Source: Octopus vulgaris (Eukaryota). From it: a stretch of 64,000 nt of DNA. This document shows positions 2,884 to 60,449 of this stretch, one piece after another; the stretch's first letter is position 1; each line of letters starts with the position of its first letter. The position numbers and the translations under genes were made by a program. The notes under the pieces are model-generated. The model ran no database searches. It was not told the DNA's origin and saw nothing but the letters and a program-made list of their open reading frames with translations. The stretch spans positions 19,406,001-19,470,000 of the forward strand of contig OX597835.1 in NCBI GenBank assembly GCA_951406725.2, given 5' to 3'.

Positions 2884-3274
2884 GGGGAGGCGCAATGGCC
2901 CAGTGGTTAGGGCAGCAGACTCGCGATCATAGGATCGCGGTTTCAATTCCCAGACCGGGCGTTGTGAGTGTTTATTGAGCGAAAAACACCGAAAGCTCCA
3001 CGAGGCTCCGACAGGGGATGATGGTGATCCCTTCTGTACTCTTTCACCACAACTTTCTCTCACTCTTACTTCCTGTTTCTGTTGTACCTGTATTTCAAAG
3101 GGCCGGCCTTGTCACTCTCTGTGTCACGCTGAATATCCCAGAGAACTACGTTAAGGATACACGTATCTGTGGAGTGCTCAGCCACTTACACGTTAATTTC
3201 ACGAGCAGGCTGTTCCGTTGATTCGGATCAACCGGAACCCTCGTTGTCGTAACCGACAGAGTGCTTCCAAATCC
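2884..3274 (+). mobile_element. tRNA-derived SINE type C, full length
   Basis: GGCGCAATGGCCCAGTGG box A and GGTTTCAATTCC box B. Near-identical to 42677-43076. Imperfect TSD ACATCC(C/T)CTAGA. Confidence 0.9.
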
Positions 3275-4384
3275 ACATCCTCTAGATTCCATAACGATCT
3301 CAAGGACGTAGGGGAAGCTGAGGGGGGACACTTTAGGCAAACTGTTACTACCGGTCCTAGGGGACATCTAGTTGCTACTTTTATCTTTCGCTAGATTATT
3401 GGATTTCACATTCGGAAAGTGTGTTTCTCTACAACCCCGGGCCAACTAAAGCCTTGTGAGTGGATATATGTGACGGGATATATGTGTGTGTCATTTTGCC
3501 TGGGTCTGTCCCCACACCCATCATTTAACAGCCAGTGTATCTGTCTCCACGAAGCTTAGCGGTTCGGCAAAACAAACCGATAGAAAATGTATCAGGCTTA
3601 CAAAAGAAGAAATGGGTATATTTATTTGACTAAAACTTCAAGCCTGTGCTCTTGCCTGGCTGTAAAGCAAACGTCTGAAACCAGTCCTTTGGACCAATAT
3701 TTCTACATAAATTTTAATACATTCTTCGTTTACCACTTCAGACATGTTTTTTTTTTGTTTAACACATTATTTCCCCCATATTTGTCTTCTGTATTAAAAG
3801 CTCATTATTCATCATCATCAATGTTTTCTTTACAAATTCCGTATTCTCTTAAGTTGTATCATCCAAATTTAATTTTTGTTTCCATTTTTTAATTTTCAAT
3901 ACCCACACGCACACACATGAAAGAAGTATATTGTGTATATATATACATCATGCATCCATTTTATTAATTTATTATCCTTTGTGTGCTGGAGTGTTTAGAG
4001 TTTCTCTTACATTCTTTTTACAGTTTTTTTTTTTTGACACCGGTTACTTTATAAGATCCGTTTTATGTAGAAAGTTATTTCCAATAAATATTCTTCTTGT
4101 AAATATTTTATTTAATTTTTCGGAATATAGTTTTCAGGAATTCCCTTTAGTTTTACAGAATTTGAACATCAACGCAATATAGTTTTATATTTTCTCCTCA
4201 TCTATTTTTTTAACCTTCAAACAATTTTCATCTTTCTAACGTATTATTAATAACCTTCCCAGCCTTTCATCTATAACTTTTTTTTCCTCTAAACCTCACT
4301 TTAAAATTATTTCTGGTGTGTTTCCTATTTACTTATAATTTAGTCTATTAATTTGCATTGACCTATCACTCTATTATCCTTTCT

Positions 4385-10957: not shown

Positions 10958-11320
10958 TAAATAGAAAGATGAATAATCTTGTAGTAGATTAATAAAAGTT
11001 TAACCGATACCTTAGTAGCAAAAATCACAGCAGTAAAACAGCACGGTTGGAGGTACAACCATATGGTGTTGCAACCGTGCGTTGGTGCGGATAATTGAAA
11101 TTAGAACATTATTGGTGAATTGAAGAAATGGAGCTGAACGCAGATTGAACAGAAATCGTTTTATTTCATTCTACACGTGTTTCGAAAGGCACAAATTACC
11201 AAAATCCGATGGAATAATGGGACCATATTGTGTCTTTCTCTTCAGGAAGAAAATAGGAAATCCGTTGGAAAAACAAAAACAGAACAGAGGCGGAGCAAAA
11301 ACAAATCGAACTATGCTCCT
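10958..11320 (-). mobile_element. Hammerhead-bearing non-coding element, family H1, inserted in (TA)n
   Basis: Reverse-complement homologue of 53811-54171. Flanked by (TA)n on both sides, with the 16-nt terminal piece ATCGAACTATGCTCCT repeated at 11343-11358. Confidence 0.8.
11162..11256 (-). ncRNA. Type I hammerhead ribozyme, intact core
   Basis: Minus strand reads TATTTTCTTC-CTGAAGA-GAAAGACACAA..TTGTGCCTTTC-GAAAC-ACGT-GTA^GAATGAAATA. Stem I pairs at 9 of 10 positions and the cleavage triplet is GUA. Confidence 0.8.
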
Positions 11321-11355
11321 ATATATATATATATATATATATATCGAACTATGCT

Positions 11356-34229: not shown

Positions 34230-34746
34230 TAATGTTATATGCTGATAACTGATTTTTATTACTATTCAGAGACTGAAAACATATTACACAAGCAAGCATG
34301 TTGAAAGCGATGTGTGTGTTTGCACGTGTATGCGTGCTCGTATCTGTGCATGTTAGAATGTGTTGCTGTATAAATACATGCATATTAATGTCCATATATA
34401 TCTATATATTTATATATATATATATACATGTATATACATACATGTGTATGTTATACATACGCACATGTTATATACACCCCACACACGTATATGTAGATAT
34501 ACGCATACAAGAGTACTCATACGCACCCGTATTATCACTCACAAGCACACAAAGAGATTCATATGTATAAAATAGTAGGGAGACATGCAAGCCAACAACT
34601 ATATACCCTTATGACCCACATGAAAGCCAAATAATGGGAGGAAATTGTAAAAGCGTCACCTATCATAACATTAACAGATTTACATGACAATAAATATAAA
34701 ACAAAAAAAGGGAAATAAAAATAAATAACCATAACAATAATAATGA

Positions 34747-41265
<6,519 letters not shown>

Positions 41266-41381
41266 TGTCGATGGTAGGAAGTGAAAATAAGAAAATGGAC
41301 AGCAATAATAAAATCAACTGTATTAATGATTATAAATAAATGATCAAATATAAGCTGATGAAACACAAAGAACGTATTTGG

Positions 41382-53253: not shown

Positions 53254-53645
53254 CTGTTTGTATATCCTAAAATACAATAATAGTGTACTTTTGCTTGTAA
53301 TGTTTATAACGGAGAGCACGGAATAAATAGAGGATGGGGATGATGAAAACGAGGGAAATGAAGGGTTGAAGAATGACATGAGAGAATATAAAGGTATGAC
53401 AATGAGAAATTTGTGACAGTAGCCTCTACGTTCTGAGTTCAAATTTCGCCGAGGTCGATTTGCCTTTCATCCTTTCGGGTTCGATAAATTAAGTACCAGT
53501 TATGCACTGGGGTTGATGTAATCGACTAATCCGTTTGTCTGTCCTTGTTTGTCCCCTCTATCTCCTTTCAGTTTCCGCTATCAAACCCACTCACAAGACT
53601 GTCATCAGCCTGAGGTTTTGGAGAAAACTCCTGCAAAATTTGCCA

Positions 53646-54172
53646 CGGATATTCTTTAAATAGTCAGAAATTTAGTCTCGGTCACAAAGAACATCTACGC
53701 ATCCCGTGCTCTCACCCACCGGAATGACCGCTGCCTGACCTGTTAAAATCTTCAACGCACCCACCACCCGATTTCAACATACATTGATAAACAGTTTGGC
53801 CATGGGCTCTTAGGAGCCTCGTTCGATTTGTTTTGCTCCGCCTCTGTTCTGTTTCTGTTTTTGCCAACGGATTTCCTATTTCTTCCTGAAGAGAAAGACA
53901 CAATATGGTCTCCTTATTCAATCGGAATTTGGTAAATTGTGGCTTTCGAAACACGTGTAGAATGCAATAAAACGATTTCTGTTCAATCTTCGTTCAACTC
54001 CATTTCTTCAATTCACTAATAATATTAAAATTCAATTATCCGCACCAACGCATGGTAGCAACACCATATGGTTGTACCTCCAACCGTGCTGTCTTCTGCT
54101 GTGATTTTTGCTACCAAGGTATCGGTTAAACTTTTGATTAATCTGCAACAAGATTATTCATCTTTCTATTTC

Positions 54173-54176
<4 letters not shown>
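53646..54176 (+). mobile_element. Hammerhead-bearing element, family H1, longer copy ending in (TA)n
   Basis: 53811-54171 is homologous to 10958-11320. Bracketed by an ~80-bp direct repeat (53565-53645 and 54269-54350). Confidence 0.8.
53877..53969 (+). ncRNA. Type I hammerhead ribozyme, intact core
   Basis: CTGAAGA at 53886-53892, stem II GAAAGACACAAT/ATTGTGGCTTTC (11 of 12 bp), GAAAC at 53948-53952, palindromic ACACGTGT, GTA^ at 53957-53959, and stem I TTC/GAA plus TATT/AATA. Confidence 0.8.
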
Positions 54177-54248
<72 letters not shown>

Positions 54249-55382
54249 AAATTATATACGATGAGCTTCTTTCAGTTTCCGTCTACCAAATCCACTCACA
54301 AGACTGTCATCAGCCCGATGTTTTGGAGAAGACTCCTGCAAAATTTGCCATGCTATGGGGCTGAACCTTGTACCTTGTGGTTTGGAAGAAAGCTTCTTTT
54401 CGTACTTTTGATATAGCGACAGAGTTTTATAAGTTTCTATGAGAAAATTAACGAAAATTGATAGCAGAAAATTATTCTGGGCAAATATTATTTTGAAAAG
54501 TATAAAAATTTATTCCTCTAAATAAAAAAAAATAACTGTTTAAAAATAAAAGTATATAAAATCAACATATGTCGAAGGAAACCTAGTTTTCTCTAAATTT
54601 TATGTATGTATCGGACAGATTATTATAAGGTCAACATATTTGGGTTAGTTTTATAGTTACAGTCAGTTTGCTATAATAAACACGACAGGAGAAGCTTGTA
54701 GGTGTCTTTGATATGCATCGAGAAATATCGACTCCGCACAAATACTTTATTACTGATTGATGCCGTATCGCATCTCTCCAGAAATCAATGTTCCGTGACT
54801 ATCTTACTTGGCTGATAGCCATCATTCTCGCTGCCAACAGAACCCGGCAGCCAAAGAACGACCGTTTAACATACCGCTGCTCTTTTCTGAGGCCAACCTT
54901 AATTGATCTTTGGCTACGATCTTTGCAACTTGTTCATCGTTTCTCTTCCACCCTACTTCCACCCTACTCACTTATGCTTCTCCTCCTCTTCGTTTTTCAT
55001 TCATCTGTGTTCGTCTTAATTACTTCTGCAAATGATTCCACCTCAAACTTTTGTTTTGTTTATTCATTTCTCCCATCGCCATTGATGTCGATATTCATGT
55101 TGTTGTCTTGGCTGTTGCTGCTGCTGTTGTGTATTTTGTTCTAGTTGTTGTTCATTAGAGATTGCTTTGTTTATTGTTTAAGATGATACTATCTATTAGT
55201 TTCGTCATGAAATTAATTGCGATACATTTTTCGACTTTCTGTATTGTGAGTTCAAATGCCACCGAAATCAGCTATATTTTTTTCTTGTTGTGGGTTCAAA
55301 AACAGAAAGAACGAGACACCGGCTCCTGTGGTTATTAGTGACTCCAAACTTTTCCACTTTTTTTTGCTCAATAAATGAAATG

Positions 55383-60190: not shown

Positions 60191-60193
<3 letters not shown>

Positions 60194-60441
60194 ATAAAAC
60201 GGTAAGATAACAAAAGAAAGAAAGAGACCTCAATATTATGTAAATAGAGGAAATTTATCTATACAATATGTTACATTACTCGGTAGTCAAGATAAAACTC
60301 TGAGTTTCAGATGCTGAAGTGGAAATCCACAACACCATCTCTTCGGTTATCTAGCCAGATAACCGAAGAGATGGTGTTGTGGATTTCCACTTCAGCATCT
60401 GAAACTCAGAGTTTTATCTTGACTACCGAGTAATGTAACAT

Positions 60442-60449
<8 letters not shown>
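60191..60449. mobile_element. Family H3 element with a perfect 93-bp fold-back containing a hammerhead-like motif on each strand
   Basis: Arms 60260-60352 and 60357-60449, loop AGCC. Motif AGATAA-CCGAAGA-GATG..CATC-T-GAAAC-TCAGA-GTT^TTATCT. (TA)n on both sides. Confidence 0.8.

Follow-up and report, generated by a model that had tools for sequence, protein, structure and literature searches.

What are two related, apparently non-coding sequences, each with what looks like a type I hammerhead ribozyme, doing on opposite strands of a 64-kb window of the Octopus vulgaris genome (the window being the whole stretch of DNA analyzed here)? The preliminary description had read them as members of a TA-targeting, ribozyme-processed, non-autonomous retroelement family with a 360-bp unit. 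Both copies are present with the CUGAAGA, GAAA(C) and GUA elements reported for them, and they align at 346 of 385 columns. Their ends required small corrections, copy A running over 53649-54175 (it does not start at 53646) and copy B over 10959-11321. We found that both are tail ends, cut short on the 5' side, of a Penelope-like element (PLE) that codes for protein and is present in many copies; their features are collected in Table 1.

Table 1. Features of copies A and B in the 64-kb window; unit positions refer to the 3,734-nt reference unit taken from locus L069.
Feature	Position	Strand	Remarks
Copy A, 5'-truncated 3' end (pLTR/3' UTR) of PLE	53649..54175	+	unit positions 3208-3734; 96% identity to L069 unit
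Copy B, shorter 5'-truncated 3' end of PLE	10959..11321	-	unit positions 3370-3730; 93% identity to unit
Hammerhead of copy B	core from 11245; predicted cut between 11172 and 11171	-	same parts as copy A
Stem I 5' strand UUC	53883..53885	+	predicted to pair with GAA 53960-53962
Hammerhead core CUGAAGA	53886..53892	+	in 18/18 aligned variants, one of them CUGAUGA
Stem II arm, 55 nt	53893..53947	+	12-column outer stem, internal loop, predicted inner hairpin
Stem II strands of copy A	53893-53904 with 53936-53947	+	one mismatch in copy A
GAAA	53948-53951	+	sequence
Stem III palindrome ACACGUGU	53951-53958	+	self-complementary; sequence
GUA triplet	last base 53959	+	predicted cut after 53959; cleavage predicted only
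Proximal fixed end (unit ~3584)	54020..54027	+	stop point of inverted partner copies; putative second RT start
Tail of ~150 nt to the distal fixed end (unit 3734)	54028..54175	+	comparison of copies
(TA)n target repeat	54176..54245	+	sequence

A search of the genome with the window copy gave 2,169 candidates, and the 40 that were scored were all 97-100% identical over nearly the full query. Counting exact motifs genome-wide, we obtained 1,824 hammerhead 5' halves and 1,857 tail ends, with 0 matches for the reversed controls; the window subfamily has about 1,850 exact-motif copies. These copies have one 3' end in common and differ in how far upstream they reach into an ORF, with 5' ends scattered over a unit of 3,624-3,734 nt. 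The ORF of the reference unit encodes 904 amino acids, with a reverse transcriptase (RT) followed by a GIY-YIG endonuclease (EN), and lies upstream of the hammerhead-bearing 3' part. In three loci (L069, L070 and L071), open frames of 908, 908 and 899 residues stand directly upstream of the common 3' sequence. Pfam scans of the ORF gave no hit, and its RT/GIY-YIG identity was assigned by alignment to homologues, with an Argonauta protein among the nearest. It shows the signatures YRDD and VY..YVG..R..H..E..N and carries S/N-rich inserts. Codon differences between subfamilies follow a purifying pattern, with 164 synonymous versus 77 non-synonymous changes in 500 codons. The claim that the sequences encode no protein holds for the two fragments, as tblastn of the ORF against the window gave no match, but not for the family.

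The reference locus L069 has the architecture of a PLE: part of a pLTR lies upstream, and a truncated copy is attached in inverted orientation. At L206-L207 (G000:C1:119.51-119.53 Mb), three full units of 3,624 nt and a truncated one follow each other head to tail, with 899-aa open frames in two of the units; in tandem units the start codon is placed 49 nt past the distal fixed end. Contigs from four sequencing runs, which we can only guess to be RNA and in which neither ends nor strand are readable, cover 29-30 of 30 bins of the element; one of these runs bears a second species label. Within L069, one contig of the X2 run joins the ORF (5321) to a point just upstream of the hammerhead (7223) with GT..AG ends, a junction seen in that single contig with 27 letters on its short side, the RNA nature of the run again being a guess. 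The start of copy B falls approximately at the acceptor of this junction.

Regarding the flanks, TA repeats lie on either side of copy B, while copy A is flanked on both sides by an 85-nt repeat (53562-53645 and 54266-54350; 92% identical), which probably resembles an octopus SINE. We discarded this repeat as a target-site duplication of copy A: the repeat, at 92% identity between its two sides, is probably older than copy A, which shares 97-99% identity with the copies nearest to it. The window also contains a 6.6-kb low-complexity tandem array (34684-41335), a short-stem hammerhead-like motif near 1534 on the minus strand, whose core reads CCGACGA and whose stem III region is palindromic, and, at 60191-60447, the inverted end pair of a second, very young Hydra-type PLE with a 717-aa ORF that has the CxCx5C linker. 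Most of the 150 EN hits scored for this second PLE are 100% identical, tandem arrays of ~2.6 kb are frequent, and it carries a hammerhead-like motif with a variant core (CCGAAGA) and an arm of ~30 nt.

To which PLE clade does the element belong? Hydra PLEs are described in section 11 of Craig et al. 2021 (PMC8557442) by RWK and DKT motifs, the absence of CCHH, a CxCx5C linker between RT and EN, CxxC and CxH motifs, a short length and TA insertion, and the linker is proposed there to aid TA targeting. The ORF of the present element shows Hydra-type motifs, namely QSDKT, CNLC and CPH (FPH in the L069 copy), and CCHH is absent. RWL is found in place of RWK, a motif that occurs within the first 90 residues of 47 of 107 homologues, and the unit exceeds the 'generally shorter than 3 kb' given for Hydra elements. 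The linker, searched as CxCx4-7C, is missing from all 60 translated segments that precede the EN (the loci being in part redundant) and is present in 75 of 78 EN-bearing homologues; it is also absent from the sister subfamily and from a 51%-identical relative in L383. Two other ORFs of the same genome served for comparison: protein identity was 39.5% with one of Hydra type that has the linker, and 23% with one of Neptune type. In a quick tree of 40 rows, comprising the first 36 of 108 proteins and leaving out the named Hydra references, the RT nests among unnamed linker-bearing Hydra-type homologues with an SH-aLRT of 98, apart from two Neptune/Penelope-like outgroups. Assignment to Neptune was rejected: neither the CX2-5CxxC linker nor CCHH is present in the EN, and identity is at the 23% given above. 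Judging by these motifs, we file the element as an EN+ PLE that would work like Hydra; it is not a strict Hydra member, since the CxCx5C linker is missing. This lineage targets TA without the linker.

The insertions themselves were examined in the first 94 of the 1,857 tail matches. In agreement with the TA targeting proposed from the two window copies, both of which end in (TA)n, 88 of these tail ends run into (TA)n, while 6 continue into the next unit; the sister subfamily likewise ends in (TA)n. An inverted partner lies adjacent in 54 of the 94. All of these partners but one end at unit positions 3567-3591 (53 copies; the remaining one at 3523), and none at the distal end. For 40 of the 94 sampled copies, both window copies included, we detected no adjacent proximal-ended partner. 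Conversely, the proximal end followed by TA has 421 exact matches in the genome, and among the first 30 of them (from the same chromosome as the tail-end sample, and overlapping it) the partner was distal-ended in 22 and proximal-ended in 0, with 6 running out of the locus and 2 showing no partner end. According to these results, the insertions give genomic support for a model with two starts of reverse transcription and add to it a strict distal-proximal pairing.

The 5' ends speak to the role of the ribozyme. The predicted cut is crossed by 55 of 88 direct and 49 of 54 inverted copies, and we found no pile-up of 5' ends at it (2 of 88 start within 2 nt, with 1.0 expected), which leaves the earlier description of the copies as ribozyme-processed without backing. 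As 55 of the 88 run through the cut site, the template was likely uncut or re-ligated at the hammerhead. The 5' ends of paired copies lie at most 30 nt apart in 17 of 54 pairs, compared to 6.2 by permutation. A mild excess of 5' ends at unit positions 3500-3530 (13 versus 6.05, P 0.009, in a window chosen after looking) takes in the predicted cut but also two palindromes, TTTCGAAA and ACACGTGT, and these would make head-to-head joining more likely. Formation of the inversions by fold-back of one cDNA was tried and rejected, since in 28 of the 54 pairs the inverted copy reaches more than 30 nt further 5' than the direct one.

The hammerhead shows CUGANGA, GAAA and NUH together with three helices, stem I being 3 bp long. 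A Rfam scan lists no hammerhead among the best 150 of 226 window matches, and in 53800-54050 it gave one unrelated match only (E 6.7). Taken by themselves, the motifs have no better folding energy than shuffled sequences (z of 0.42 and -0.19). Hence, the case for a hammerhead rests on the related copies, which we compared using 18 variants picked to span the subfamilies out of 51 distinct cores seen. All 18 retain the catalytic nucleotides as well as the cleavage triplet, while the arm sequences drift. In the outer stem II, 4 of 12 pairs are changed on both sides and 90.7% of cells are paired, compared with 28-51% in slid controls; 0 of 500 shuffles reach the covariation score, two of five shuffle measures being non-significant (213 and 335 of 500). 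The variants are related, and the compensatory changes therefore amount to few independent events. Run without guidance, RNAalifold recovers 10 of the outer stem II pairs. The long stem II of 10-11 bp that had been described is thus sustained, but the ~31-nt region within it is not a plain loop, as it holds a predicted inner hairpin with 82% of cells paired, less well kept than the outer stem. Stem I pairs as well, though with only 3 contiguous pairs in the window subfamily versus 6 in sister-subfamily copies; these 3 pairs are invariant in the 18 variants and so say nothing on covariation. The window subfamily has one or two stem II mismatches.

The stem III palindrome has CG, UA or UG as its central pair depending on the subfamily, and every version could pair in a dimer; for ACACGUGU the predicted energy of the intermolecular duplex is -10.3 kcal/mol. 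In the predicted minimum-energy fold of the dimer the palindromes pair and the core is buried in a competing hairpin. Altogether, a PLE-type type I hammerhead of retroelement origin, as first proposed, is supported by the compensatory changes between subfamilies and by the retained palindrome, and its self-cleavage is predicted. The long arm is the likely cause of the Rfam miss.

Does this arm occur beyond the present family? A loose pattern (CTGANGA-N44..66-GAAA-N6-TAG) has 10,312 matches in the genome; its reversed version has 1,553 and its order-swapped version 2,938. Among the first 30 matches, 12 of which belong to the present PLE lineage, 15 have a perfect palindrome, which the pattern does not demand (5.7% background); at least 3 stem I pairs, one base of which the pattern fixes, are found in 20 of 22 palindromic matches versus 1 of 8 others. 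Eight loci (L108, L110, L116, L122, L123, L128, L132 and L135) represent other families with stem II arms of 44-65 nt, differing palindromes and family-specific stem I pairing, and several of them score weakly against the model of the present family. A second long-arm family, with a 44-nt arm, seemed to be linked to a Neptune ORF in L293, a link that we rejected on account of a TA repeat lying between the two; its 28 oriented loci contain no ORF within ~1.7 kb upstream, and no ORF could be tied to a third long-arm family. The distant relative in L383 (about 380-1160; 51% EN identity) has neither linker cysteines nor the S/N insert; after it comes a long-arm hammerhead of its own, whose triplet is GUC, and the sequence ends in TA at a proximal-type site. 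We also considered that long arms might explain 'half-core' Naiads and rejected it, because in the Naiad_Ovul consensus GAAA comes before CUGAUGA near the 3' end, as seen by eye.

The most probable explanation, and one in which we place considerable confidence, is that copies A and B are 5'-truncated 3' ends of a coding, Hydra-like Penelope retrotransposon inserted in (TA)n, with a predicted type I hammerhead that has a 55-nt arm. It builds on the anatomy of the element, the ORF, the two fixed 3' ends, the TA flanks and the compensatory changes described above; its cycle would follow that of an Anolis PLE, for which Frangieh et al. 2024 (PMC11167929) describe cutting of both strands, two internal RT starts that define a tail, and a hammerhead that the protein assists and that insertion in vitro can do without. 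The RT-GIY-YIG protein would nick both strands of the TA repeat, and reverse transcription would start at two internal AU-rich sites of the RNA, one for each strand, which lie ~66 and 216 nt beyond the ribozyme cut in the 3' direction. Both cDNAs would usually pass the ribozyme and end early, in many cases at nearby template positions, and would then be joined head to head. The hammerhead is likely slow, cleaving as a dimer through ACACGUGU or aided by the protein of the element, which would leave most templates intact at the ribozyme site. Its job would probably be to cut read-through or tandem transcripts to unit length, so that 265 nt of leader remain ahead of the start codon. TA targeting without the CxCx5C linker likely rests on the nuclease core and on AAUA-like RNA ends.

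The main rival is a cycle with efficient cutting by the hammerhead, in which ligation closes the unit-length RNA into a circle; this circle would serve as the RT template, and rolling round it would give pLTRs and multimers. Copies crossing the cut site fit such a circle equally well, and DNA alone does not separate it from an uncut template. One could also argue that the L206-L207 array favors it, because its full units are 0-1 nt apart from each other versus 50-189 nt from four other copies, and a circle of this kind is the model proposed in PMC4209133. Nevertheless, the same arrays arise when pLTRs cross over unequally or when a tandem already in place is transcribed. In the Anolis work (PMC11167929), in vitro insertion was normal with hammerhead mutants, and none of the reads had its start or end at the cut. 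We regard the circle as an unlikely route that still deserves serious attention. The absence of a 5'-end pile-up at the cut would also agree with a hammerhead fold that has lost cleavage and is retained for the protein as a handle, either for binding or for dimerisation, as would the short stem I, the stem II mismatches in the youngest subfamily and the competing predicted hairpin. Yet the catalytic nucleotides and the triplet persist in 18 of 18 variants despite drifting arms, and palindrome and stem I pairs occur together among the loose-pattern matches. This joint retention of core, triplet and stem I makes a non-catalytic handle less likely, and we judge it quite improbable.

As for the non-autonomous, ribozyme-processed retrozyme or SINE-like family with which this analysis began, most copies are indeed short and non-coding, no ORF match exists in the window, and animal retrozymes have been argued to stem from PLE pLTRs (10.64898/2026.07.22.740005). 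But the copies have no fixed 5' end and form no short tandem monomer, and they are collinear with the 3,734-nt ORF-bearing unit, so that the proposed 360-bp unit dissolves into truncations of different length; we give this reading hardly any credence. Extending the preferred, Hydra-like cycle, we offer a speculative and rather doubtful proposal: the linker-less PLE may find TA via its RNA, with two AAUA-like priming sites used in fixed order by one protein dimer; the 55-nt arm may be a protein-binding switch that holds the ribozyme off until the RT has passed; and long-armed dimeric hammerheads (~7,000 above background, missed by Rfam) may form an overlooked structural subclass that occurs in several families.

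Hammerheads in PLEs, TA targeting of the Hydra type, inverted copies and tails have all been described before, and one octopus Hydra family is on record. What the present analysis adds is a young coding family with a long arm that evades the models, a lineage that still targets TA after losing the linker, and the strict pairing of ends. The role that hammerheads play in PLEs, and the proposal that TA targeting depends on the RT-EN linker, can both be tested in one element, since this family is young, has open ORFs, offers ~1,850 countable insertions and targets TA without the linker. The long arm means, besides, that current models can miss thousands of predicted hammerheads in a single animal genome. 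Our literature search found no paper on this family, and Lunse et al. (on PLE hammerhead dimers) or the supplements of PMC4209133 may show long-arm variants.

Compared with the Hydra clade as described in PMC8557442, the element has in common a single ORF with RT then GIY-YIG, DKT, no CCHH, and CxxC and CxH around E and N, as well as (TA)n insertion, a 3' type I hammerhead with palindromic stem III and an attached inverted copy. It differs in the missing CxCx5C linker, in its size (3.6-3.7 kb, with an ORF of 899-904 aa), in RWL for RWK and in its stem II, whose 55 nt with the loop contrast with at most 24 nt in all 26 Hydra rows of File S2 of that work, so that the preliminary description was right to call it atypically long. 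The N-terminus and hammerhead of Hydra-1_Obim also differ by eye from those of the present element. The minimal PLE hammerheads of Cervera and de la Pena 2014 (PMC4209133) are likewise type I, located in pLTRs, with a short stem I, a palindromic stem III and a presumed dimer, but their helix II is given as 6-8 bp, whereas here a 12-column stem encloses an inner hairpin. A long stem II arm is also listed in File S2 of PMC8557442 for PLE-X1_sMoe of Selaginella (9-bp stem, ~35-nt loop, ~53 nt), so an arm of this length is uncommon but has a precedent; that element is an EN-less, rDNA-targeting plant PLE, flagged as deviating from the canonical structure, and the likeness considered here is one of arm size. 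Animal non-LTR retrozymes share a type I hammerhead in repeated animal sequence, but they are described in PMC7229834 as 150-450-bp tandem non-coding monomers, while the present copies are truncations of a coding element, and short non-coding tandem monomers bounded by hammerheads were not found among the sampled copies. Finally, with the Poseidon element PAc of Anolis (PMC11167929) the element shares two fixed ends and a tail, hammerhead-intact templates and AT-rich targets. Its tail is longer, ~150 nt versus the 30-40 bp quoted for Penelope, both of its starts lie upstream of the ORF, and its ends pair strictly one distal with one proximal, whereas the RT start of PAc is reported without strand difference.
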